DNA of 64,000 nt, taken from a virus (Duplodnaviria > Caudoviricetes). The position numbers were made by a program, and so were the translations under genes. The notes under the pieces were generated by a model. The model saw nothing but the letters and a program-made list of their open reading frames with translations, made no database searches and was not told the origin of the DNA. Positions 3,501 through 62,162 of the stretch are shown piece after piece (the first letter of the stretch is position 1; every line of letters starts with the position of its first letter). The stretch covers positions 130,646 to 194,645 of IMG/VR virus record IMGVR_UViG_3300005611_000002. The stretch is one strand, 5' to 3'.

Positions 3501-5993
3501 GGGTCTATTTTGAGCATATGCTTCTTCGGGCGTAAGAGCTGGAACTCCGGGTACAAAAATTTCTGCAATCTTAAGTTGGTCACCAGTTACACTCGATGGT
3601 ACTGAATTTTCTGATTCTTGACCCTTTACGATAGCGGTTCTTCCGTAAGAGTCAATAGTGACAATGTCAGTTCTATTCAGATAAAACTCGTAATCGAGTT
3701 GACCAAATGTATCGTGAGCTGGTGTTAGGACTGTGTTGTTTGCATCAAACGAAGGCGCAATACTCACACTCGTGCTTGAAGAACTGACTGTTGGCGCTGT
3801 CCCTTCTGAAGCAGCATTAGTATATGTGGCACCAGCGATTGGTTCAACAAGTGGTCTAAAATCTACACAATCTCGAAGATTATAAGTAGCACCAGAAGGT
3901 GATACGAAAGGTTGTATTTTGTTCGTTGCTACTTGTCCAGAACCAGTACCGATTGGATAACTGTCAATTGTAAAGAAATAATCTCCAGTTGTGTCATTCA
4001 ATTTGAATGCATTCATCTGAACTGTCATATCACCATCAGAAGGAACAGGGCGACCTGGGATAAACTCGATGTACGAATGGTCGTAGTAATTATTTTTCTG
4101 GTTAGTTCTTAATTTGAAACTTGTTGTGACGTCGTTGTTAGCAGCATCAGTAATCGAAACTACTTCATAGACATCTGGAAAGCCTAGATTGAATTTCGAT
4201 GATGAAGTAGAATCAGTATTCGCGAATGTACATTTCACATATAGTTCAACTGATGTTTTAGTAAATGGAGTTGCGTCTGAAATTCTTTTATTCACGTAAA
4301 CTGTTGCCGTAGCAGAAGTCGTACCAGCAAGTTCTATTTGAAGATCATTGTTAGCGCCAGATAATGAAGTACTTAATACATCAATTTTTTGATTGGAAGA
4401 GTCGACAAACAAAATGTCATCATTGTTTACATTAAAATCTTCTCCAACCGCAGAAGAAATGATTACTGTATTTCCTGAAAGACCGGTCAATTCTCTTTTT
4501 TCACGAACCGGAAGCGAAATACTATCGGTTGACTTGAGACTAACGGCTCCTGTATCAAAAATCATGGAGCCGTTACTTGCTTCATTTAAAACTGAACCAC
4601 TTGCGACAGAAATAACACCCGACGACCCAATGATTTGCTCTACGCCAGAAATTTCATTAGATCCATCTAGACGAATATCGAACAAGAAAATCTTATCATC
4701 AGTAATATTTCGAACTCTTGCAGTACCGGTATTAGCAGACGCACCATTTTGAAGTGTAACTGTCGAAAGAGTATCAATCGGAACAACACCAGTATTTGCA
4801 ATATCAAGAATGTTCAGATAACCGCCGTAATTGAATGAAACTGCTTGATTTGATCTTTCATCAACTGACGTATTTGCAATTGGATCAATATCAAGAAGAA
4901 CTTCAGCAAGATTTTCTACTCGATAACCTTTCACATATGCAATACCACTTCCAACGGAAGCTTTCAGAATATCGTCTCTTCGTATGACCTTTGTTTTAAA
5001 GTCACGCACAATATAGTCACCAGACTCTTCAAATGTGCGGCGAGCCATTTCTTCACCCAGTGCATTATATTGTGATACGTCTCTTAGAAAAACGGCGCTG
5101 CCATTTGAATATCTTGTAAGCGTAAAGAATGTAGTATCAGCATCTGCGTCTAAAGTTGGTAGCGCAGTTAATACTGGAATCAACTTCAAGCGATCTGCGC
5201 CTGGAGCGTTTTCATTTGTGGATCCATTTGCGTTATCAAAAAGCGATGGGTCTTGAAGAGAACTAATCAACCTTTCTTCTACGACGTAACCAATTGAAAC
5301 TCCATCTGGAACATTAGTATATTTTGAAACAACTACCAACTGTTCTTCAGTGAAAAGGAAATGTCCTTTTTGAAAGATAATACCAGGGGCAGCACGAAGA
5401 CCAAACGAATTACCAACTGGGTTTGGAAAATTAGTTACGGAAATAGTAGTTTCAAGTGTCTCAGTCACATTGGTTGTAGTTCCAATGTCATAAGAACTAA
5501 TTTTATAAATTTCAAGAGTTTCACCACCCTGAAATACCTTATTTCCGGCAGACGTTGAAGTGTAGTCGATGTAAAAAGTGTTGAGATCTGGATCTCGCGT
5601 TTCAAAGCCCCGTGTCGCTGCGATCACTTGCGCACGAACTCCACTCACAAGGCCTCTTAGTTCATATACGTTGTTTCTTTCATATATTTGACCGCCATCA
5701 GAAACAGTATCTGTAGAACCAACATAAACAGCTGGATCAAAACCGCCTTCATTTGTAACTTTGACGTACTTGAGATCAGAAAGTTCGGTGAAGGTACAAC
5801 CCTTGATGATTGAACCCTCTTTGTAAATATTGTCTCCAAACTGTTCAATCTGATTCTGCAGAACAGTTTGAAGTTGAGTCAATTCTCGAGCTTGAACCGC
5901 ATACGAAGGCTTGAATAGAACTCTGTAATACTGGTTTTCGAGATCAAAATCATCGAAATAAGGCGCGGTACTAAGATTCGTATTAATTGGCAT
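576..5993 (-). CDS. Large virion structural protein, VrlC/DUF4815-like
   Basis: N-terminal PYFDDFD...YYRVLFKP..AVQARELTQLQ and APGADRLK motifs typical of this T4-like family; follows gp8. Confidence 0.8.
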   Translation of the reverse strand: MPINTNLSTAPYFDDFDLENQYYRVLFKPSYAVQARELTQLQTVLQNQIEQFGDNIYKEGSIIKGCTFTELSDLKYVKVTNEGGFDPAVYVGSTDTVSDGGQIYERNNVYELRGLVSGVRAQVIAATRGFETRDPDLNTFYIDYTSTSAGNKVFQGGETLEIYKISSYDIGTTTNVTETLETTISVTNFPNPVGNSFGLRAAPGIIFQKGHFLFTEEQLVVVSKYTNVPDGVSIGYVVEERLISSLQDPSLFDNANGSTNENAPGADRLKLIPVLTALPTLDADADTTFFTLTRYSNGSAVFLRDVSQYNALGEEMARRTFEESGDYIVRDFKTKVIRRDDILKASVGSGIAYVKGYRVENLAEVLLDIDPIANTSVDERSNQAVSFNYGGYLNILDIANTGVVPIDTLSTVTLQNGASANTGTARVRNITDDKIFLFDIRLDGSNEISGVEQIIGSSGVISVASGSVLNEASNGSMIFDTGAVSLKSTDSISLPVREKRELTGLSGNTVIISSAVGEDFNVNNDDILFVDSSNQKIDVLSTSLSGANNDLQIELAGTTSATATVYVNKRISDATPFTKTSVELYVKCTFANTDSTSSSKFNLGFPDVYEVVSITDAANNDVTTSFKLRTNQKNNYYDHSYIEFIPGRPVPSDGDMTVQMNAFKLNDTTGDYFFTIDSYPIGTGSGQVATNKIQPFVSPSGATYNLRDCVDFRPLVEPIAGATYTNAASEGTAPTVSSSSTSVSIAPSFDANNTVLTPAHDTFGQLDYEFYLNRTDIVTIDSYGRTAIVKGQESENSVPSSVTGDQLKIAEIFVPGVPALTPEEAYAQNRPAYGVKVTTKGTKAYKMRDIEKIDRKVDALKYYVLLTALEIETTNLNILDENGLSRFKNGIIVDPFNDLNIANVESADFNAAIDFAEKSLMPAVKSFPINMKYKSNSSGTIFPSTADARAATLSRDQDVSIINQPYATEFRNCVSNFYSYRGVGSLDPEYDALYDVTTNPVSIDIDLVTPLSQFADAINEVVPLTATSREVLNSRLTGRNRRQDGNQITTTTTFTDTVRETFNTLQVSGEQISETPVGDFVSNINFNPFMAPREVNVYMSGLRPNTRHYFFFDEVDVNQFVAPGDDVDSAAEVHRNGNFGDPITSNENGVITAVFDIPAETFFVGDRKLEIVDVDAYNTIASASTSYGSVTYRAYNFSIERSSLTASTRQPTNFIEQITSERNVTRRITTIEQREERWEEDGGDPLAQTFFIKQGMGRGSDTVFASKIDLYFKRKSSTYGVTVEIREVLNGYPSYQNVPFSRVHLTPSEVSISDDASAVTTITFPAPVRLDVEKEYAVVVIPDAANPDYLIFTSKVGGTDLTPGDNQGRSIVQDWGDGVLFTSTNNRAWQSYQDEDIKFNLYRHNFNVSSGTVTLTNNDHEFITTENNIGRFKTGEVVYTIHPSDSNTSNTVSISPGNNEITGTNLSTTYATDDYILVDDGASNKQLFKVVSANSSVIVADRPASFSANAAGNPVTIGTLRHYDFRYPNFMILEGSSATASRKFEASDTIYGFDSSSVATITSMDNIEFSYIQPMIMRTNDSVTSTSLSGTFVDPNNTTNTYTQLMQFNDKTTFGKTGMTVFSKSNDIARTKTMDLTVSLANASNVTSTPFIDIETSSVLAYQWKITNSSDTTAKYISRTVELAENLDAEDFQIFVTGYRPNGTDIKVYIRPQAANDPEVFDVNNWVELELTQGINTYSSISNIYDFREFVYRVPDSAKTAGVLNYTNDLGSFSGYRRFAIKIELLSENIFKAPRLLDYRGIALT

Positions 5994-18860: not shown

Positions 18861-18886
18861 TATAAATAAGTTCAAATGTATTTATA
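18861..18886. promoter_or_regulatory. Divergent pair of late promoters (TATAAATA + at 18861, - at 18879-18886)
   Basis: Exact consensus on both strands between the divergent gp48 and gp4 units. Confidence 0.8.
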
Positions 18887-18903: not shown

Positions 18904-18964
18904 GTGGTAAAGTCATATAAAGGAAGATTTAGACCAAAGAATCCCGAGAAATACAAAGGTGATC
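18904..18964 (+). pseudogene. Displaced original 5' end of gp4
   Basis: Encodes MVKSYKGRFRPKNPEKYKGD, a synonymous-diverged copy of the N-terminus of the intact gp4 at 20048. Confidence 0.8.
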
Positions 18965-18968
18965 TCAC

Positions 18969-19050
18969 CATAAATAAATTGTCAGTCGCGGATGGGGGTC
19001 CCACTGACTCTATGCTTAAACAATTCACGACGAAAGGAACACAGCTTATG
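18969..19050 (+). promoter_or_regulatory. Conserved endonuclease-gene leader, copy 1 (late-promoter-like CATAAATA + hairpin + RBS)
   Basis: Near-identical to 58647-58729 (-) and structurally equivalent to 48172-48249 (-). Confidence 0.75.
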
Positions 19051-20061
19051 TCTATTTATCAGTGTAATATATGCAATAAGTCATTTAAATCTTTAAATGG
19101 GTTAGGAAAACACGTTTCAAAATCTCACGACACCACATCTGAACAATATTATAACAATTTTCATCTTAAGCCCAAAGAAAATATTTGTCAAAATGAATGT
19201 GGTAACAAAACTGATTTTATAAGTATCACATTTGGATATAAGAAATATTGTAATACATGTTCTAGAAGCTTAGGAGCAAAAAAACATCGTAAAAGACTAA
19301 AAGAAGATGAATTAAAGTTTAAACAATTTTCTGACAAGGTTTCTGAAAATCAAAGAAAAATATGGAAATGTCGAGAAATAGACGGTACTGCTGAGGAAAT
19401 AAAAAGTAAAATAGGACAAACAATATCTAAATCCAGAACTAATATGACAAAGGATGAAAGATCTAAAAAATTTGGATGGTTAAATAAATTAGAAGAACAC
19501 GAAAGATTAGAAAAAATAGAAATTATCACTGAGCCGCTGAAAAATTTTTGGAAAGATCCAAATAACAGACTCGAAAAAACGGAAGTGATAAAACGAAGAA
19601 GTCATACCATGAAATCTAAAACAAAAAGTAAAAAAATAGAAATTGCAGAAAAAAAGCTTATTAAAAGATATGGGTTGACAAAAGAAAAGGCTAAAAAATG
19701 GTATGATAATAAATACGACAAAGAATCATATTATAAAGCAGTTTGGGAAATAACCAATTTATCTTATTTTTATTGCTTAGGAGATATTGATCCGCTTAGA
19801 TTGAGGGGCAAACTGCACAATGGTATAGTGTACGTTCTAGATCACATTTTAAGTATTATGCAAGGATTTTTAAATGATATAGATCCTTATATTATTGGCC
19901 ATCCTTGCAACTTACAAATTTTGGAAAATGATGTAAATTTATATAAATCAGCAAATTGTTGGATTACTTTCGAAACTTTGAACGAAAATATAAAGCGATA
20001 CAACTTACAACATAAAAACAAATTATATATGAAAGTTCTACAAGCAGATGGCACGCTATAA
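19048..20061 (+). CDS. Putative homing endonuclease (C2H2 zinc finger N-terminus, HNH-like C-terminus)
   Basis: CNIC..F.....LGKH...SH finger, LDHI...HPCNLQ...N..K; very AT-rich; RBS AAAGGA before ATG 19048 (track ORF begins at 18904 in frame). Confidence 0.7.
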   Translation: MSIYQCNICNKSFKSLNGLGKHVSKSHDTTSEQYYNNFHLKPKENICQNECGNKTDFISITFGYKKYCNTCSRSLGAKKHRKRLKEDELKFKQFSDKVSENQRKIWKCREIDGTAEEIKSKIGQTISKSRTNMTKDERSKKFGWLNKLEEHERLEKIEIITEPLKNFWKDPNNRLEKTEVIKRRSHTMKSKTKSKKIEIAEKKLIKRYGLTKEKAKKWYDNKYDKESYYKAVWEITNLSYFYCLGDIDPLRLRGKLHNGIVYVLDHILSIMQGFLNDIDPYIIGHPCNLQILENDVNLYKSANCWITFETLNENIKRYNLQHKNKLYMKVLQADGTL

Positions 20062-20512
20062 TCAGGGTAGATTTCGCCCCAAAAATCCCGAGAAATATAA
20101 AGGAGATCCCAGCCGCTGCTACTATCGAAGTTCTTGGGAGTTCAAATTTTTTCGCTATGTTGATCAGCATCCTGATGTGATATGGTGGGCTTCAGAAGAG
20201 TATGTCGTGCCCTATATGTCTCCGATAGACGGAAGAGCGCATCGGTATTTTCCTGATGTTGTCGTGAAAAAGAAAACGCCAGAAGGGACTACTGAAACTG
20301 TTATGATCGAAATCAAACCAAAAGGTCAGACGAGACCGCCCGATCCGCGAAAAAAGAATGCAACAAAAACTGGACGAGTTTCTCGCAAATACATAAACGA
20401 GGTCAAGACATATGGAATTAATGAAGCAAAATGGCGTGCAGCAGAAAGATATTGCGCTGATCGTGGGTGGAAATTCATGCTCATGACTGAAGATCAGTTG
20501 GGAATTAAGTAA
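20048..20512 (+). CDS. gp4: Head completion nuclease gp4
   Basis: YRSSWE..F...D..P.V..W.SEE..PY.SP.D...HRYFPD, EIKP, NEAKW motifs. Confidence 0.93.
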   Translation: MARYNQGRFRPKNPEKYKGDPSRCYYRSSWEFKFFRYVDQHPDVIWWASEEYVVPYMSPIDGRAHRYFPDVVVKKKTPEGTTETVMIEIKPKGQTRPPDPRKKNATKTGRVSRKYINEVKTYGINEAKWRAAERYCADRGWKFMLMTEDQLGIK

Positions 20513-47520: not shown

Positions 47521-48174
47521 CTATTTATATTTGCAGTTATCCATATGCCATCTAGCCATAGAATTACCTCTACCTTCCTTTCCGCAGTGTGGACATTTAT
47601 ATTCCTTAAATTTCATACTTTTTCTTGGCTTGCTGAGATTTTTTCTCCATTCTTCAGAACGAATTCCGCGTCCTTCTGGCCAAATTTTTTTACCTTTCAT
47701 TTTCTTGCTGTGTTCTAATGAAGCTCTTTTTTGATTTTCAGTGCGATTTTCTCCTTTGAGCTTTTGCGTCGAATTATCGCTCATGGTATAAGTTGATCCT
47801 AATTCTCTTGGAATTTTTCTGTGTTTTTTAGGATCCAAACCTCTTCTGATATAACCTTCATCACTCTGAAAATTTACATATTCTGTTTGATTTTCATAAA
47901 TATTTTTATCAATACGTACTAGATCTCCTTTAGGGCCAACTGCAGTTATTGAATTTTGTAAATGATGCGTTCCTTTATTTACCTTTTCTTTCTGCAGTTC
48001 GCCTCCCACGAAGGGATGATCTGGAAATGTTTCTTTATCCCAAGTAGCAAACCCATTGGATAGACTTTCATCTCTTATTTTCTGTTGAAATTCTGCGTTA
48101 ATTTCGGCTAATGTTTCTTGTGGTAAACTTTCCACATTCAGAAACTCGCTTATTACGTCTTTATAAATAATCAT
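47521..48174 (-). CDS. Homing-endonuclease-like protein (NUMOD3-like repeats, C-terminal CPHC zinc finger)
   Basis: HS..MKGK, SEEW..NLSK, CPHCGKEG....M.RWH..NC; no clear catalytic motif seen; has the shared leader. Confidence 0.55.
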   Translation of the reverse strand: MIIYKDVISEFLNVESLPQETLAEINAEFQQKIRDESLSNGFATWDKETFPDHPFVGGELQKEKVNKGTHHLQNSITAVGPKGDLVRIDKNIYENQTEYVNFQSDEGYIRRGLDPKKHRKIPRELGSTYTMSDNSTQKLKGENRTENQKRASLEHSKKMKGKKIWPEGRGIRSEEWRKNLSKPRKSMKFKEYKCPHCGKEGRGNSMARWHMDNCKYK

Positions 48175-48249
48175 GCTGGAACTCCTCTGTTGTTCTAGAG
48201 TAGGCAGGGATTCTTGGCGGTCTCCCGTGGCCTACATGACTTATTTATA
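48172..48249 (-). promoter_or_regulatory. Conserved endonuclease-gene leader, copy 3
   Basis: TATAAATA then GTAGGC-CAC-GGGA-loop-TCCC-T-GCCTAC-TCTA ... GAGGAG..CAGCATG. Confidence 0.7.
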
Positions 48250-54995: not shown

Positions 54996-55053
54996 CATAG
55001 AGAACATGAAATGTATAAATAGTACTGAAGAGGTAAAACTATAGGTACATTTC

Positions 55054-55671
55054 ATGTTCTACACAATTTATAAAATAACTAATAAGATCAACGGCAAAAT
55101 CTACATTGGTAAACATCAGACCAAAGACCTAAATGATGGATATATGGGCTCAGGTAAACTCATAATAGCAGCTATTGAAAAATATGGAATTGATAATTTT
55201 GAAAAAGAAATTCTCTTTCAATTCGATAGTGAAACTGATATGGACACCAAAGAAGCTGAACTGGTAACTGACGAATTTGTGAAAGAAGATACCAACTATA
55301 ATCTTTGCCCTGGCGGTAAAGGTGGTTGGGGGTATATCAACTCTAATGATTTATCGCCAAGATTTGCAAACTATGTAGGCACTAAAAAGTACAAAGAATG
55401 GTCAGCAAAGGGTGGCAAAAAAACAGGAAGAGTGAATATCACTAATGCCCATTTAGAAGGTAAAATAAGATATGATACCTTTACTGGTAAAACACATAGT
55501 GATGAAACCAAAAGAAAAATATCCGAAGCAAACTCTAAAATAACTGGTTCTAAAAACTCTCAATATGGTACTATGTGGATTACTAATGGTAAAGAGAATA
55601 AAAAAATAAAAAAAGATGTCGATAGTATACCAGAAGGATGGTATAAAGGTAGAAAAATAATGCTTCCGTAG
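55054..55671 (+). CDS. Seg-like GIY-YIG homing endonuclease with NUMOD3
   Basis: TIYKITN.INGKIYIGKH, YMGSG, YNL..GG.GG, GKTHSDETKRKIS; TATAAATA at 55014. Confidence 0.92.
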   Translation: MFYTIYKITNKINGKIYIGKHQTKDLNDGYMGSGKLIIAAIEKYGIDNFEKEILFQFDSETDMDTKEAELVTDEFVKEDTNYNLCPGGKGGWGYINSNDLSPRFANYVGTKKYKEWSAKGGKKTGRVNITNAHLEGKIRYDTFTGKTHSDETKRKISEANSKITGSKNSQYGTMWITNGKENKKIKKDVDSIPEGWYKGRKIMLP

Positions 55672-56207: not shown

Positions 56208-56333
56208 AACCTTGGTTGGTTTCAGCCCAGCAATCATGAAGTCTGTTCTCTCTGTAGAAGACCTTGAAGACTTCACTCCGTTCAATGTGATGGTGAAAAC
56301 CCTCATGAATGAGCGTTACGATTACTAATCGGT

Positions 56334-56349
56334 TAGGCCTTCGGGCCTA
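56334..56349 (+). other. cUUCGg hairpin
   Basis: TAGGCC-TTCG-GGCCTA; lacks a clear T run, so a processing/stabilising hairpin or weak terminator. Confidence 0.5.
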
Positions 56350-56361
56350 GCCTCCAATCTT

Positions 56362-56488
56362 TGGATCATTACAGCAACAAAACAGCTATGCATGAGAAGC
56401 ACGTGTTTGTGGTGTTCGAGTCCCACCGCCCCGACCATGACGGGGTGTAGGCAAATGGTAAAGCCGCGTAAAGCAAAAAGTTGATCCA
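56362..56488 (+). ncRNA. YrlA-like RNA with a circularly permuted tRNA domain
   Basis: TGGATCA/TGATCCA closing stem; order T arm, acceptor 3' strand + ACCA, acceptor 5' strand, D arm. Confidence 0.65.
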
Positions 56489-56510
56489 GTTAAACATTAT
56501 GAGGAGTGAC

Positions 56511-57077
56511 ATGAAAGCAAAACTTAAGTTCATTTATTCATCCATGAACAGCGGAAAGAGCTTGTCACTCCTCTCTAAAAACTTTATGCTAAGAGAAAAA
56601 GGGTTTCATACTGTCCTTATGAAACCGGCTATCGACAGTCGAAGCAACGATTCTATTACTACGCGTCTCGGTATAAGTGATCCTTGTATCGTATTGGAAT
56701 CAAAGGATAATCCCGAAAAAATCATAAAAGAAAAGTATACTCATCGGATAGACTACATTCTAGTTGATGAAGCGCAGTTTCTCACGAAGGAGCAGGTCTG
56801 GAACCTAGCATATCTTGTAGACTATTCTAACATAAACGTTCGTTGCTACGGTCTAAAACTAGATTGGCAGGGTGAGTTCTTTACTGGTTCTGAAGAGCTC
56901 ATGAAAATCGCAGATGAGCTGGAACCAATCGAAAACTACTGTCGTCACAACAAGGGTGCTCGAGCATTTTTTCATATGAAGCTCGGTGGTTCTCAAGAGA
57001 GTGTAGAAATCGGTGAAGAAGACTTATACGAGTCCGTATCTCGTAAAAAATGGAAAGAATGGTATGACAAAAATTGA
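56511..57077 (+). CDS. tk: Thymidine kinase
   Basis: MNSGKS, KP.ID.R, VDEAQFL, YGL..D..G..F.GS motifs; GAGGAG RBS before ATG 56511. Confidence 0.93.
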   Translation: MKAKLKFIYSSMNSGKSLSLLSKNFMLREKGFHTVLMKPAIDSRSNDSITTRLGISDPCIVLESKDNPEKIIKEKYTHRIDYILVDEAQFLTKEQVWNLAYLVDYSNINVRCYGLKLDWQGEFFTGSEELMKIADELEPIENYCRHNKGARAFFHMKLGGSQESVEIGEEDLYESVSRKKWKEWYDKN

Positions 57078-57702
57078 TGAAGTTTATCGGCGGTTTAGCA
57101 AGATCTATCCGCCTTCAAGTCGTTTTGTACCCGAGTCAAAGATACACGCAGATCCATTTCGTAGCCTCGTAGGAGTTGTACTTTCTGCTCAAACGAGAGA
57201 TGAAATGACTGCTCGTGCTTGTAACAACCTTTTTGCAATTACTGATACACCTAAAGGCGTGCTTGAGTTGACCGATGAACGTTTAGTAGAATGCATTCGT
57301 CCTGTCGGTATGTATAATAACAAAGCAAAAAATCTCAAGAAGATGTGCACTCAACTCATCGAAAGACATAGCGGCCAAGTTCCTAAGACGCGTTCTGAGT
57401 TAATGGCTCTTGCTGGAGTTGGAAGAAAGTCGACTGATATTATGATGCGCTTTGTATACCACGAAGGTGCTATTGCGGTTGATACACATGTTCATAGACT
57501 ATCAAACAGACTTGGATTGGTGAATACGCCTTCTGCTGACGTGACCGCAGACTTTCTTGCTGAGAATACGCCCGAGCAGTTCAAGATGAGTGCTCACGAA
57601 TGGTTTATCAACTATGGCAAGTACGTATGTAAAGCAAGGTCACCGCGGTGCTCTGAGTGCATCTTCACAGATATTTGCAACTACTACGAAAAAACTTGTT
57701 GA
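57064..57702 (+). CDS. nth: Endonuclease III (HhH-GPD glycosylase, 4Fe-4S)
   Basis: LSAQT.D, L.GVGRK, AVDTHV.R...RLG, C......C..C.....C. Confidence 0.93.
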   Translation: MTKIDEVYRRFSKIYPPSSRFVPESKIHADPFRSLVGVVLSAQTRDEMTARACNNLFAITDTPKGVLELTDERLVECIRPVGMYNNKAKNLKKMCTQLIERHSGQVPKTRSELMALAGVGRKSTDIMMRFVYHEGAIAVDTHVHRLSNRLGLVNTPSADVTADFLAENTPEQFKMSAHEWFINYGKYVCKARSPRCSECIFTDICNYYEKTC

Positions 57703-57754
57703 CATTTCATTCTGGTTGGTATAGTATGATAATGAAATAACATGGAGAATCACC

Positions 57755-57790
57755 TTGTCTAAACAAGAAGACTTTCGTATTTTGACAGCT
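57755..57790 (+). pseudogene. Displaced original 5' end of gp39
   Basis: TTG start with GGAG RBS and upstream TTGACA promoter; encodes (M)SKQEDFRILTA versus (M)SKNEFKILTP of the intact gene. Confidence 0.75.
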
Positions 57791-58649
57791 ACACATTAGC
57801 TCTACCTGGAAAATATCCTTCTGGTATTTTTTGATCGGGCTTTATTCTTATATTCTTATGCCCATTATTATACCACTTTGAACCAGTCGTAGGATTGTTT
57901 TTCTTCATCCATTCTGAGTGTCTTTCTCTAGCAGTCATTCCATTTTCGTCTTTTTCGTTGTCCAATTTTTTGTTGAGCTTATTTTGACGTTCTAACCACA
58001 CTTTTTCATTTTTCTTTATATACCTTTTTCTGCCTTCCGATATTTTCTTTGCATTTTCTGGTTTGCATGACGGATTTTTATTTCCTCGGCGTTTCATACC
58101 AGATTTTTGATATAAGTTCAATCCAGTTTTTTCATCTATTTTAGACATTGTTTTTGCCATGTTGCGACTTCTTATAGAAATTAGATCAGGATTATTTTTT
58201 AGAGCTTTTTCATAAGCACGTTGAAAACAATTTTTACCATCAACTATATCTTTCATTTTGGTTTCTGCACCTTTGATAGCTCCTTTTTCATATGATGTTT
58301 TCCCATCATTATCTGCAATTTTTCTAACTTCTGGATTATATAATGCGAGACCGTCATTATTATGACAATTATAAAATTTTGGATTATTTCTAGCATCTAC
58401 CTTTTCAAGAAATTTCGTTTCGTGGTTATATGCTGATTCTGCAGTATCAAATACCTTTATTTTTCGAACTATAAAACTTTTCAAACCACTTTTTCTTATG
58501 ATTTCATTTACTATTTTTGACGACGTTGTATATCCATCCTCTGTCATAAATTTTGCTGGATTTGCACCTTGACCATATTTGCTACCAGCATAAAACTTAC
58601 CGGTAGACACTTCTTGAATGATGTAGAAATAGGGTATATAAATAGGCAT
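57789..58649 (-). CDS. Seg-like GIY-YIG homing endonuclease
   Basis: PYFYII......FYAGS, Y.TSS, E...L......N..FYN, C-terminal WYNNG...IP.G...GR; RBS before ATG 58649. Confidence 0.85.
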   Translation of the reverse strand: MPIYIPYFYIIQEVSTGKFYAGSKYGQGANPAKFMTEDGYTTSSKIVNEIIRKSGLKSFIVRKIKVFDTAESAYNHETKFLEKVDARNNPKFYNCHNNDGLALYNPEVRKIADNDGKTSYEKGAIKGAETKMKDIVDGKNCFQRAYEKALKNNPDLISIRSRNMAKTMSKIDEKTGLNLYQKSGMKRRGNKNPSCKPENAKKISEGRKRYIKKNEKVWLERQNKLNKKLDNEKDENGMTARERHSEWMKKNNPTTGSKWYNNGHKNIRIKPDQKIPEGYFPGRANV

Positions 58650-58729
58650 AAGCTGTGTTCCTTTCGTTGTAAAGTGTTCGAACATAGAGTCAGTAGGACC
58701 GCCATCCGTGACTGACATTTTTATTTATA
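58647..58729 (-). promoter_or_regulatory. Conserved endonuclease-gene leader, copy 2
   Basis: TATAAATA-aaaat-GTCAGT-CAC-GGA-tggcgg-TCC-T-ACTGAC-TCTA...ACGAAAGGAACACAGCTTATG. Confidence 0.75.
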
Positions 58730-58951
58730 AAATGGAATATTTACCGTGGAAAATCATTGGAACACTTTATCACATCAAACGCAGCTAAAATATCTTGAAA
58801 AAGCGTTATATCTCATTCAAAATGGGTATTCAAATAATACGAACGTAGAAGATTTAGCTATGTCTATCGCGCACTCAGAGTCCAAAAAAAGTGGTTGACA
58901 CTTTATCGCTCGTATGATATTATCAAAATATATGATGGAAAGGAATCAGTA

Positions 58952-60775
58952 GTGTCAAAAAACGAATTCAAAATTCTAACTCCCAGAGATCACGTTCGAT
59001 ATCGTGTTCAAATGTACATGGGCTCGAGCTCTCGTGAAGAGATCGAGCGTTTTGTGCTTGGAGAATGGAAAAAAGCGACTTACGTTCCTGCGCTGTCAAA
59101 AATGATCGACGAGATCCTTGACAACGCGATCGATGAAGCAATTCGTACAAACTTCAAGTACGCCAACAAGATTGACGTCTCGATTGATGGTAACGAAGTG
59201 ACTGTAGCTGATAACGGACGCGGTATTCCTCAAGATGAAATCTTTGATGAAGCTACCAATCAAAAGGTACTTCGTCCTGTTGCTGCATGGACTAAGGTCA
59301 ATGCTGGCACCAGCTTCGATGATCAGCGTGTAACGATCGGTACAAATGGTGTTGGCTCTGCTGCGACGAACTTTCTGTCTGAAAACTTCCTTGGCCGCAC
59401 TCGTCAAAATGGAACGCTTATTGAAGTCAAGTGTTCTGAAGGTGGCCTGAACGTAGACGTGAAGAAAAAGAAGGGCGGTGGTAATGGTACCATCGTAACC
59501 TTTACGCCTGACTTTAGCCTATTTGAGACTGACTCTCTTGACTCGCTGGATACCATCTCACTTCTCGAAGATCGTCTCATCGGTCTTCAAATGGCATTTC
59601 CTGAAATCCGTTTTTCGTTCAATAAGAAGCGCATTCAGGTCAATGACCTCAAGAAGTATGCTGCGATGTTCAGTGAGACTTCGGTAATCGAACGGTCGGA
59701 AAATCTTTCGTTCTTCTTTGCTACTTCTGAGGATGGGTTTCGTTCGAATAGCTTCGTGAATGGCGTGAACACTCGCCAGGGTGGTACTTATGTTGATCAC
59801 ATCGTCAACAACGTAGCTGATGAACTCGTAGTTCTGATCAAGAAAAAGCACAAGATCGAGGTTCCCAAGAGCACAATCAAGAATGGTCTTACATTCGTGA
59901 TGTTTGCTCGTAACTTCACAAACCCGAAGTTTGACAGCCAAACAAAAGAACGTCTGACAAACGGCGTGAGTGAAGTTCGCAGTCACTTTGAAAGTGCTGA
60001 TACAAAAGACTTCAACTTTTTTGCTCGTAAGATTTTGAACACTCCTGAGATCATTGAACCCATCATCGAAGCGCAACTTGCTAAGAAACTGGCCGCAGAT
60101 CGTCGAGCTGCAACACTTGCTCAGAAGAAGCTCAAAAAGGTAAAGGTTGCAAAACATATCGCTGCCAATAGTGATAACGCACTTCTTGCGCTCGTCGAAG
60201 GTGACTCGGCTATGGGCTTTCTTCTGAAAGTTCGCGACTCGAGTAAGATTGGAGCGTATCCTCTTCGTGGTGTGATCATGAATACTTGGGACATGAAGCC
60301 CGCAGATGTTCTCAAGAACAAAGAACTCGGTGAGCTTATCGCAATCCTCGGCCTTGACATAAACGATCCAGACAGTGTCGATAACATGACATACTCTGGT
60401 GTTGCTACGCTGACTGATGCTGACCACGATGGCGCCGGCCACATCACGCCTCTGATCATTGCTTTCTTCTACAAGTTCTGGCCGCGGCTCTTGACAGAGA
60501 AGCGTATTCATATCACTCGTTCTCCCATCATGATTTCTACGAACGGTAAAGACGTAAAGTGGTTCTTTACCTACACAGAAGCAAACGAGTTCAAGGCAAA
60601 CTGCAAAGGCTATAGCCACCGCTATATCAAAGGCTTAGGATCGCTTACAGAGGATGAGTATGATCGAGTAATCAATGATCCCGTGCTTGACACAGTCACA
60701 GTCGATGATGCATCTTACTTTCAAATGATGTTCGGTGGCAATGCACAACTTCGTAAGGAATTTATGAATGAATGA
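58952..60775 (+). CDS. gp39: DNA topoisomerase II large subunit (gp39+gp60 in one chain)
   Basis: EILDNAIDE, DNGRGIP, GTNGVG, EGDSA, PLRG, DADHDG, YIKGLG; GTG start after AAGGA RBS. Confidence 0.96.
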   Translation: MSKNEFKILTPRDHVRYRVQMYMGSSSREEIERFVLGEWKKATYVPALSKMIDEILDNAIDEAIRTNFKYANKIDVSIDGNEVTVADNGRGIPQDEIFDEATNQKVLRPVAAWTKVNAGTSFDDQRVTIGTNGVGSAATNFLSENFLGRTRQNGTLIEVKCSEGGLNVDVKKKKGGGNGTIVTFTPDFSLFETDSLDSLDTISLLEDRLIGLQMAFPEIRFSFNKKRIQVNDLKKYAAMFSETSVIERSENLSFFFATSEDGFRSNSFVNGVNTRQGGTYVDHIVNNVADELVVLIKKKHKIEVPKSTIKNGLTFVMFARNFTNPKFDSQTKERLTNGVSEVRSHFESADTKDFNFFARKILNTPEIIEPIIEAQLAKKLAADRRAATLAQKKLKKVKVAKHIAANSDNALLALVEGDSAMGFLLKVRDSSKIGAYPLRGVIMNTWDMKPADVLKNKELGELIAILGLDINDPDSVDNMTYSGVATLTDADHDGAGHITPLIIAFFYKFWPRLLTEKRIHITRSPIMISTNGKDVKWFFTYTEANEFKANCKGYSHRYIKGLGSLTEDEYDRVINDPVLDTVTVDDASYFQMMFGGNAQLRKEFMNE

Positions 60776-62162
60776 GTTGACAAACTTCTTCGATGATGAT
60801 AATGTAGAATCAAATGGAAAGGAAACTGATTCTATGATTCGAGAATATCCGATCTCAAACGTTGCAAAGAGCGAATGGCTCGACTTTGCAATGTACACGG
60901 TAGAGTCTCGTGCGATCCCAAATATGATCGACGGTATGAAACCAGTGCAACGTTTTTACGTTTACTCGTCGATCAAAAACAGTAAGACCGACTTCAAAAA
61001 GGTAAGTGCGGTCTCTGGTGTCGTAAGCGACTACGGATACAACCATGGTGAAGGCTCTGCTGCTGGTGCTGGTCAGCTCATGGCTGCCGAATGGGCAAAC
61101 AACATCTGTCTTGTAGAGGGCCGCGGTTCTTTCGGTACTCGACTTGTTCAATCTGCAGCGGCTGCTCGTTATACATACACTCGTCTGCACAAGAACTTCA
61201 GCAAATATATCAAAGACATCGATCAGGCGCCGGTTCATGAAGATCCTGAGCACGAGCCTCCGCGTTTTTACGTTCCCGTCATTCCTCTAGTGCTTGCAAA
61301 CGGCATCAAGGGTATTGCAACTGGTTTCGCAACAAACATTCTTCCTCGTGATCCTGAAGATCTTGCTCGCGCCTGTGCTGAGTATGTTGCGACTGGAAAC
61401 ATCGACAAAAAAGTTCGTGTAAAGTTTCCTGACTTCAATGGCACCGTCACGTTTGATCCTGAAGCGAATAGGCATATCTGTCGCGGTTCCTTCCAGCGTA
61501 ACAGCAAGACAGTCATCACCATTACTGAGGTTCCATACGGCTTCGACCGCGAGTCTTATGTTGGTGTACTCGACAAACTTGAAGAAGCTGGTCATATCGT
61601 AGGTTATGATGATCTTTGCGACAAGAATGGTTTTTGCTTTGAAGTGAAACTGAAGCAAAACACTTCAGCAAACTGGCCTGATGAAAAAATCACGGCTATG
61701 TTCAAGTTGATCAAGCCATACACTGAAAACTTGACTGTGATCGGACCAAACGGAAAACTTCGTGAGTATGACGACGAACGCGATCTTATTCGTGATTTCT
61801 GCGACTACCGAATGGGCGTACTTCAGCAGCGCATCGATCTTCGTAAGGAAGAAGCAACTGAACTCGCACGGTGGCTGAACATCAAGATGCAGTTCATTCA
61901 AGCAGTCCTTGACGACAAGATCAAATTCAAGAACCGGAAGAAAGACCAGGTCGCAGTTCAAATTTTTGCAGAGACTGATGCTGAGACTGATGACGTGGAT
62001 CGACTTCTGCGCATCAACATCATGAGCCTTACAGATGAGATGGTAAAGCAGCTTCAAAAAGAGATCAAAGACGCAAAGGCCGATCTTAAGTATTGGAACA
62101 AGACCACACCTCGTGAACAGTTCAGTGACGACCTTCAAGAGTTGTCCACTGGTGACCACTAA
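60768..62162 (+). CDS. gp52: DNA topoisomerase II medium subunit gp52
   Basis: RAIP..IDG.KPVQR, YNHGE, AAARYT, GIATGF. Confidence 0.96.
   Translation: MNELTNFFDDDNVESNGKETDSMIREYPISNVAKSEWLDFAMYTVESRAIPNMIDGMKPVQRFYVYSSIKNSKTDFKKVSAVSGVVSDYGYNHGEGSAAGAGQLMAAEWANNICLVEGRGSFGTRLVQSAAAARYTYTRLHKNFSKYIKDIDQAPVHEDPEHEPPRFYVPVIPLVLANGIKGIATGFATNILPRDPEDLARACAEYVATGNIDKKVRVKFPDFNGTVTFDPEANRHICRGSFQRNSKTVITITEVPYGFDRESYVGVLDKLEEAGHIVGYDDLCDKNGFCFEVKLKQNTSANWPDEKITAMFKLIKPYTENLTVIGPNGKLREYDDERDLIRDFCDYRMGVLQQRIDLRKEEATELARWLNIKMQFIQAVLDDKIKFKNRKKDQVAVQIFAETDAETDDVDRLLRINIMSLTDEMVKQLQKEIKDAKADLKYWNKTTPREQFSDDLQELSTGDH

Follow-up and report, generated by a model that had tools for sequence, protein, structure and literature searches.

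Why does the topoisomerase gene of a phage possess two promoters and two starts, with a gene for an endonuclease lying in reverse orientation between them? The question is raised by the 5' end of gp39, which encodes the large subunit of topoisomerase II, in the IMG/VR virus record IMGVR_UViG_3300005611_000002, a 194,645-bp record with terminal repeats whose final 64 kb form the stretch analysed here (hereafter the window). The source phage is T4-like and has no close cultured relatives: its gp39 is at most ~50% identical to that of any isolate, KVP40-like vibriophages being among the closest, and a megablast search of the region against isolated phages returned only ~150-nt matches at 77% identity. 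The locus was compared with 80 gp39 loci from IMG/VR; the endonuclease-free set used for the gene start comprises 76 loci representing 47 distinct alleles. As detailed below, the region is likely to hold a free-standing homing endonuclease element, placed within the 5' end of gp39 without an intron or intein, that has replaced the start of the gene with one of its own.

Two starts of gp39 and an empty allele

Reading from the left, the region opens with the native early-type promoter of gp39, P1 (57699-57727, + strand; TTGACA, a 17-nt spacer and TAGTAT, matching 10 of the 12 consensus positions), followed by a ribosome-binding site GGAG (57744-57747, +), both now orphaned, and by a stub open reading frame (ORF) of 14 codons that starts at TTG 57755, ends with a stop codon at 57797-57799 (57755-57799, +) and reads (M)SKQEDFRILTATH. 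The endonuclease gene (57789-58649, - strand) comes next, its stop codon (57789-57791) sharing base 57789 with the last base of the stub. On its far side, a second early-type promoter, P2 (58895-58923, +; TTGACA, 17 nt, TATTAT and a TG extension, 11 of 12 positions), and a second ribosome-binding site AAGGAA (58940-58945, +) lead to GTG 58952, from which the functional gp39 (58952-60775, +) reads (M)SKNEFKILTPRDHVR... as one uninterrupted 607-codon ORF. P1 and P2 are the two best sigma-70-like sites within 56300-59300, and all the elements listed in the initial annotation, i.e., P1, GGAG, the stub, the antisense gene, P2 and the second start, are present.

A direct alignment of the two start copies of the window reveals little in common besides the promoter hexamers and a short peptide, which alone would leave their resemblance arguable; it is the comparative data that settle the identity of the stub. 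The closest of the 80 loci, L008, with a gp39 90% identical to that of the window, is endonuclease-free and has the order tk-nth-gp39-gp52. Its intact gp39 starts TTG-SKQEDFRILTARQHVRQRIGMYMGS and lies behind the TTGACA-17 nt-TAGTAT and GGAG that precede the stub in the window. Window positions 57737-57789 match the L008 gp39 start at 54 of 56 bases, so the resemblance of the stub does not arise by chance, and homology breaks at 57789/57790. Codons 1-12 of the stub ORF (57755-57789) are thereby the remnant of the ancestral gp39, and its codons 13-14 and stop are foreign. The initial annotation had claimed that an endonuclease cassette replaced the promoter, ribosome-binding site and N-terminus of gp39 and left the originals as a stub, and had proposed comparison with an empty allele: the L008 alignment bears this out, the endonuclease-free gene having the stub-type N-terminus and not the downstream type. 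The end that it had given for the stub homology, the endonuclease stop at 57789, holds as well; the start codon of the stub has to be moved from 57756 to TTG 57755.

On the right side, the stretch from 58870 to 59011, comprising P2, the ribosome-binding site and the new start, aligns weakly to L008. Identity is 0.69 in the 90-nt segment at the gene start and 0.90 in the next one; from ATG 59012 (the MYMGS codons) it is back at ~0.90 and then settles near the genome-wide value of 0.83. With both break points set by alignment to this empty allele, the whole inserted cassette spans 57790-59011 (1,222 nt) and stands in place of 28 nt (codons 12-21) of the ancestral gp39. It contains the inverted endonuclease gene with a late promoter and leader, a 50-codon ORF, the early-type promoter P2, a ribosome-binding site and 20 diverged codons. 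These replacement codons 1-20 of gp39 (58952-59011, +) read (M)SKNEFKILTPRDHVRYRVQ and alter residues that hardly vary among endonuclease-free alleles. The gp39 body (59012-60775, +; Pfam DNA_gyraseB, HATPase_c and Toprim) is of resident descent, the whole protein being 90% identical to its L008 counterpart.

No intron family, group I and group II included, was found at E <= 1 with intron models over 57400-59300. The layout is also unlike that of an endonuclease borne by an intron or intein: the endonuclease gene is antisense, the stub runs into a stop after 14 codons, and gp39 is equipped with a promoter and a start of its own. Two traps await automated annotation at this locus, namely that the longest gp39 ORF begins within the -35 hexamer of P2 and that the endonuclease ORF appears to begin within its own leader.

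The flanking genes fit the order seen in L008. Thymidine kinase (tk, 56481-57077) is followed by nth, an endonuclease III-like gene (57013-57702, +; Pfam HhH-GPD, 5.5e-24) that is the native left neighbour of gp39 in this lineage, the L008 copy standing at the same position with 92% amino acid identity; the nth stop codon (57700-57702) falls within the -35 hexamer of P1. To the right, gp39, a single ORF that includes the gp60-like part encoded by a separate gene 60 in T4, is followed by gp52 (60768-62162). When the 700 nt 5' of gp39 were compared over 72 loci within L008-L087, 11 unrelated contexts were found, which marks the gp39 start as a hot mosaic boundary in this phage group.

Recurrence in other lineages and the changed gene start

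The same arrangement recurs in a second lineage, represented by L027, L054 and L089, in which an inverted endonuclease gene, its product 55% identical to that of the window, lies between a 70-aa gene and gp39. In the endonuclease-free sisters of this type, L009 and L010, the 70-aa gene is immediately followed by gp39, codons 1-9 of which correspond to a 9-codon stub in L027, L054 and L089. The L027 stub (MSKEQFKI..), which has no orphan promoter, abuts the endonuclease stop, and the last three endonuclease codons are antisense to it; compared with codons 1-9 of L009 gp39, it shows ~2 substitutions and a 1-nt insertion. Downstream of the endonuclease gene follow a late promoter with leader, a small ORF, a GTTGACA promoter, a ribosome-binding site and the start MMAEVFQILTPRDHIRLRIG, and high identity to L009 resumes at the MYMG codons, as it does in the window. 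A third case is probable: L063 encodes an endonuclease 52% identical to that of the window, has no small ORF, and carries a probable stub (..TQFR) touching the endonuclease stop. An endonuclease-free sister of L063 was sought and none was found. Both the L027 and the L063 cassettes have their GTTGACA promoter at the place equivalent to P2. Two features are conserved throughout, the leader and the inverted orientation, the latter in three of three lineages.

In the gp39 frame, the left junctions fall after FR, FKIL and FRILTA and thus lie within 12 nt of one another. None of the three lineages has an endonuclease stop codon inside the cassette itself; it is the gp39 stub, read in antisense, that ends the ORF. 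In the window the stub antisense supplies the last base of TAG (57789-57791), and in L027 (2861-2872) and L063 (869-874) it supplies 1-3 codons plus the stop.

What distinguishes the cassette-borne starts from ordinary ones is a short conserved peptide. Across the 76 endonuclease-free loci, ILTARQHVRERIGMYMG is almost invariant and the codons just before it vary freely; ILTARQHVRERIG is likewise nearly invariant in these alleles, and it is there that the cassette-borne starts differ, reading ILTPRDHVRYRVQ, ILTPRDHIRLRIG and ILSARDHCRLRPG. The changes comprise A to P, Q to D, E to Y or L, and IG to VQ or PG. The cassette-borne starts are also among the most divergent in DNA: over 66 nt they show 18, 23 and 30 differences, the mean being 10.7. 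We take the conserved stretch to correspond to the N-terminal arm and the beginning of the GHKL domain of GyrB-type ATPases (I..L.GL.AVRKRPGMYIG in GyrB), an arm that reaches across the dimer to the ATP site of the partner subunit. Conserved, essential sequence of this sort is the usual target of homing endonucleases.

The endonuclease, its leader and the small ORF

The ORF finder called the antisense frame at 57789-58718. The homologues in L027 and L063 begin at MPIY, so the likely start is ATG 58647-58649, giving a protein of 286 aa; the 69 nt upstream of ATG 58649, read as coding by the ORF finder, are a conserved untranslated leader. The initial annotation had called this a GIY-YIG gene. 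The family assignment stands on the predicted fold and on PHROG 314 ("homing endonuclease"), matched at 1.8e-5, whereas the Pfam threshold is not reached (SegE_GIY-YIG, 15.8 bits against a cut-off of 25, E 0.017), and a sequence-profile search of the PDB gave no match. In an AlphaFold (AF2) model built on 15 homologues, the predicted local distance difference test (pLDDT) score exceeds 90 over residues 10-90. The top VIA-align match of the model is the I-TevI catalytic domain (1ln0; Z 7.5, root mean square deviation 3.0, 84 of 92 residues), followed by PD-T4-3, UvrC and T4 EndoII, so that the best four are all GIY-YIG domains; a Foldseek search with both domains of the model gave weak matches, I-TevI reaching a probability of only 0.75. 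Residues Y9, Y20, G22, E77 and N94 are invariant or nearly so across the 15 homologues, and no conserved Arg equivalent to R27 of I-TevI could be assigned in their alignment. On this fold evidence, residues 1-100 are placed in the GIY-YIG superfamily as modelled, and the C-terminal part is a putative Seg-like DNA-binding region.

The relatives of the protein divide along the same domain boundary. A phmmer search against 1.84 billion representatives yielded 1,831 relatives, most of which share the catalytic domain alone and only a few of which are full-length (P0001, P0002, P0004-6, P0030 and P0032). In the IMG/VR and metagenome scan, for which contexts were retrieved, the relatives sharing the C-terminal region all adjoin gp39, and the others share only residues 1-100 or so. 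This distribution would fit a modular enzyme whose C-terminal part recognises gp39. No relatives of P0002 were found in IMG/VR.

Several other endonuclease genes are related to this one in part. A second, classical GIY-YIG/NUMOD3 gene (55054-55671; PHROG 314, 1.7e-46) lies 2 kb upstream behind TATAAATA at 55014, and its product has a C-terminal motif, ..G..W..NG....IK.....IPEG...GR, in common with the gp39 endonuclease. An endonuclease-like ORF, MIIYKDV... (47521-48174, -), lies behind a convergent TATAAATA pair and ends in a zinc-finger tail, CPHCG...W/YH.DNCK, which is also appended to the gp39-endonuclease relatives P0004, P0005, P0006, P0030 and P0032. On the contigs of L010 and L009, a few kb off near tk, another endonuclease (L090/L091, 3489-4421) has a catalytic domain 62% identical to that of the window and a different C-terminal region, indicating domain shuffling within the family.

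The endonuclease gene is headed by TATAAATA (58722-58729), which we take to be the T4 late-promoter consensus and which occurs 16 times in the window against 3.9 expected. Together with a hairpin leader it occupies 58650-58729 (-), and this unit is conserved in L027, L054 and L063. A gene placed behind a late promoter should not be transcribed early. The leader also heads an unrelated zinc-finger/HNH-like endonuclease at 18904, with ~87% DNA identity, and a C:G pair in its stem is replaced by A:T between lineages, a compensatory change. Compared with shuffles, the hairpin gains no stability on the mRNA strand (z -0.85) and a little on the + strand (z -1.8), which terminates in a run of U. An opposing TATAAATA motif faces the leader from within endonuclease codons 2-4 (P-I-Y; 58637-58644, +) and is a possible promoter of a short antisense RNA, an idea with which the folding of the two strands agrees weakly. 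The + strand hairpin and its U run could also stop read-through from P1, in which case P2 would be indispensable.

Pairs of facing TATAAATA motifs across a conserved leader of ~80 nt are found at three endonuclease heads in the window (58637-58729, 48162-48249 and 18861-18886), with one motif of the pair placed in the conserved codons 2-4 (P-I-Y) of the gene. An I-TevI-style operator, i.e., a copy of the target site near the endonuclease promoters, was considered and rejected, the similarity being matched or beaten in 28 of 200 shuffles.

Between the late promoter and P2 lies the small ORF of 50 codons (58746-58898, +). The suspicion of the initial annotation that it is cargo was well founded: a 34%-identical ORF stands at the same place in the L027-type cassette, and a homologue is present in none of the 76 endonuclease-free loci. 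Its TGA (58896-58898) lies within the TTGACA -35 hexamer of P2, as does that of its counterpart in L027 (near 3945-3947); this, together with the nth stop in the -35 hexamer of P1, points to a recurrent packing of gene ends against early promoters. The small ORF matched no Pfam or PHROG family significantly (the Pfam matches are sub-threshold, E 0.065 or worse), a word-based protein search returned no homologue, and there is no paralogue in its own genome. An assignment as "ChaB" was discarded, its protein-atlas score of 0.82 being below a meaningful level.

Proposed route of insertion, rival explanations and known systems

How could such an element enter a coding sequence and leave the gene intact? 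In a mixed infection, the enzyme would cut an endonuclease-free gp39 in or near the stretch coding for ILTARQHVRERIG, at codons ~9-21. The right end of the break would then invade the donor in the conserved gp39 body, from the MYMG codons onwards, and repair synthesis would copy the replacement codons, P2, the small ORF and the endonuclease gene. The left end would be joined at or near the break, either with the donor stub serving as a short homology arm or, on entry into a new lineage, by illegitimate joining. Though chimeric, gp39 would emerge unbroken; its new start would differ from the target sequence and so presumably escape cleavage, and the former promoter, ribosome-binding site and 12 codons would persist as a stub beyond the endonuclease gene. 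Because the insertion separates gp39 from its own promoter, the element must carry one; given the variable left flank, it is also sensible for an element moving between lineages to bring promoter and start along. The 11 upstream contexts further imply that the left homology common to lineages is limited to the first ~10 gp39 codons, i.e., the stub.

Several observations weigh against this account. The element was found in only three lineages among the ~80 loci sampled, and no donor came to light: the endonuclease protein as a single query found nothing in IMG/VR, the exact junction sequence found no second copy of the allele there, and a metagenome scan with the C-terminal domain found one more short contig of the L027 type. 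The left junctions of the three lineages are not identical, so that separate illegitimate joins or later erosion could fit beside a homology arm, and the right boundary was set against a relative only ~83% identical in DNA. L009 and L010, though endonuclease-free, already have TP..E at the "resistant" positions, which makes the equation of divergence with immunity suggestive but not clean. Moreover, GIY-YIG enzymes often cut at a distance from their insertion site.

A rival history is one in which an ordinary intergenic endonuclease resided upstream of the gp39 promoter and the stub is the accidental scar of a one-off illegitimate recombination upon entering a phage with a different left neighbour, playing no part in mobility. 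Such a scar would suit the highly mosaic upstream side of gp39, the presence of nth in the window lineage where L027 and L063 have a 70-100-aa gene, the differing junction positions, and the behaviour of T4 Seg enzymes, which cut at a distance and co-convert their flanks (PMC2988022). We nevertheless consider it unlikely. L027 has a stub although its upstream gene is homologous to that of L009, L010 and L063, so that L027 should have been open to clean homing that leaves no stub; no endonuclease-bearing locus lacking a stub was found; and all junctions lie within 12 nt, with the same right boundary. Still less probable is that P1 and the stub were kept by selection because antisense RNA from P1 silences the endonuclease early in infection, a silencing that the initial annotation had suggested. 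P1 and its ribosome-binding site are indeed intact and no strong terminator is predicted on the way from P1 into the endonuclease gene, which makes an antisense transcript across that gene plausible; the gene is also inverted relative to its neighbours in all three lineages. However, the L027 stub has no promoter, an endonuclease with its own late promoter hardly needs early silencing, and transcription running on from any early gene upstream would produce that antisense RNA as well. At 96% identity to a working allele, the stub is probably young, so its intactness is no evidence of selection.

The presence of two promoter/ribosome-site/start modules in direct orientation, 1,196 nt apart, could also reflect a tandem duplication of the gp39 promoter and 5' region that diverged in place before the endonuclease was inserted between the copies. 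This order of events is very improbable, and we rejected it on the asymmetry of the two copies: the upstream one is 96% identical to L008, whereas the downstream one, which is under selection, aligns weakly. The downstream copy also shares derived residues (P, D, non-E) with other cassette-borne starts, and in L027 the endonuclease is accompanied by both the small ORF and P2. We thus favour insertion with replacement of the gene start over duplication.

A more ambitious version of the preferred reading, tentative and clearly less probable than insertion with start replacement as such, is that a dedicated family of GIY-YIG enzymes homes into the first 20 codons of phage topoisomerase genes and uses the stub as its left arm. 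If this joint reading were true, each invasion would swap the N-terminal arm and the promoter of gp39, causing fast chimeric evolution and expression rewiring of an essential replication gene, and the 50-codon ORF would be a functional accessory, e.g., an immunity or regulatory factor. Joined with the gp4-like case described at the end of this section, it would amount to a general intron-free route into coding sequence, undescribed for phages.

Among known systems, the closest in logic are the WHO elements of Torulaspora and Lachancea yeasts, which replace the 3' end of FBA1 and leave fragments as homology arms (Coughlan et al. 2020, PMC7282813). There too, the endonuclease gene lies beside its target gene with neither intron nor intein, integration replaces one terminus of the target with a diverged, element-borne copy (resistant in the case of WHO), and the old terminus is pushed beyond the endonuclease gene as a fragment, for which an essential role as homology arm has been proposed in WHO (PMC7282813). 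The differences are that WHO replaces the 3' end of a eukaryotic nuclear gene and the phage element a 5' end, for which reason the latter must also carry a promoter and ribosome-binding site; that WHO encodes an intein-like LAGLIDADG protein with zinc fingers and the phage element a GIY-YIG-like one; and that cleavage is demonstrated for WHO6 (PMC7282813), whereas for the phage enzyme it is a proposal. Mobile ORFs of fungal mitochondria (Allomyces atp6; Glomus atp6, atp9, cox2 and nad3) similarly create gene hybrids with a foreign C-terminus (PMC3630166). Here an endonuclease ORF resides in a coding region with a foreign gene end and the native end is left behind, in this case downstream. The native end is nearer to the sister species (91-98% against 64-81%; PMC3630166), as the phage stub is nearer to L008 (96% against a weak alignment). 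Unlike the phage element, these ORFs replace the C-terminus, are mostly LAGLIDADG, often lie in frame and need no promoter.

Within T4-like phages, the comparison of choice is the MobA/gene 60 cassette (Bonocora et al. 2011), as cited in a preprint (bioRxiv 10.1101/2022.08.31.505936). According to that preprint, the target is likewise the gene for the topoisomerase II large subunit, target bases are deleted (55-75 nt for MobA, 28-33 nt here) and a diverged homologous segment is supplied; several clades have acquired MobA by independent insertions, and for each of them there is a near-identical sister that is endonuclease-free. MobA is described there as an HNH nicking enzyme in the Toprim region that splits the gene into two expressed polypeptides and needs a 50-nt translational bypass; in contrast, the window element has a predicted GIY-YIG fold and sits at codons 12-21, gp39 stays whole behind its new promoter, and the upstream piece is a dead 12-codon stub. 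The resemblance to MobA is thus one of working mode, a replaced target segment, and not of membership. The T4 endonucleases SegF, SegG, SegB and MobE, which home without introns, resemble the window element in being encoded by free-standing GIY-YIG-type genes that adjoin essential genes and are patchy among relatives, contain promoters of the downstream gene (e.g., gene 32 promoters in segG) and are expressed from late promoters, as is predicted from TATAAATA for the window element; unlike it, the T4 cases are intergenic or split a gene into two working parts (PMC2988022). Neither the T4 mobile-element review (PMC2988022) nor a study of nucleases at recombination boundaries in ICP1 describes a duplicated and replaced gene start, and the papers searched contained no account of 5'-end replacement in a phage.

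The endonuclease gene of the window, like that of L027, is flanked on one side by an intact target with a foreign terminus and on the other by a native fragment. Of these two ends, it is the native fragment that resembles endonuclease-free relatives more closely. The trick is already known from yeast, from fungal mitochondria and, in part, from T4 MobA; the present element is a clean instance of it in a phage and not categorically new, its novelty lying in the endonuclease lineage, the target site and a 5'-end form that brings a promoter along. It shows that a free-standing endonuclease can occupy an essential phage coding region without an intron, an intein, a split gene or ribosomal bypass, and it accounts for the orphan promoters and mini-ORFs of phage genomes as well as for N-termini that are chimeric and gene starts that form mosaic boundaries. 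Judged from the sequences, it may also point to a new GIY-YIG specificity, probably for the conserved topoisomerase sequence.

A second terminus replacement is found in the same genome at 18904-20512. There, 20 codons of a gp4-like gene (MVKSYKGRFRPKNPEKYKGD) survive as a stub joined in frame to the zinc-finger/HNH-like endonuclease ORF (18904-20061), and the intact gp4-like gene runs from 20048 with a recoded start (MARYNQGRFRPKNPEKYKGD). The initial annotation had counted the gp39 locus as the third example of its kind, which is at least partly right, this one other case being confirmed in the window. It has an empty allele of its own on the L008 contig, which the stub matches up to GGTGAT.

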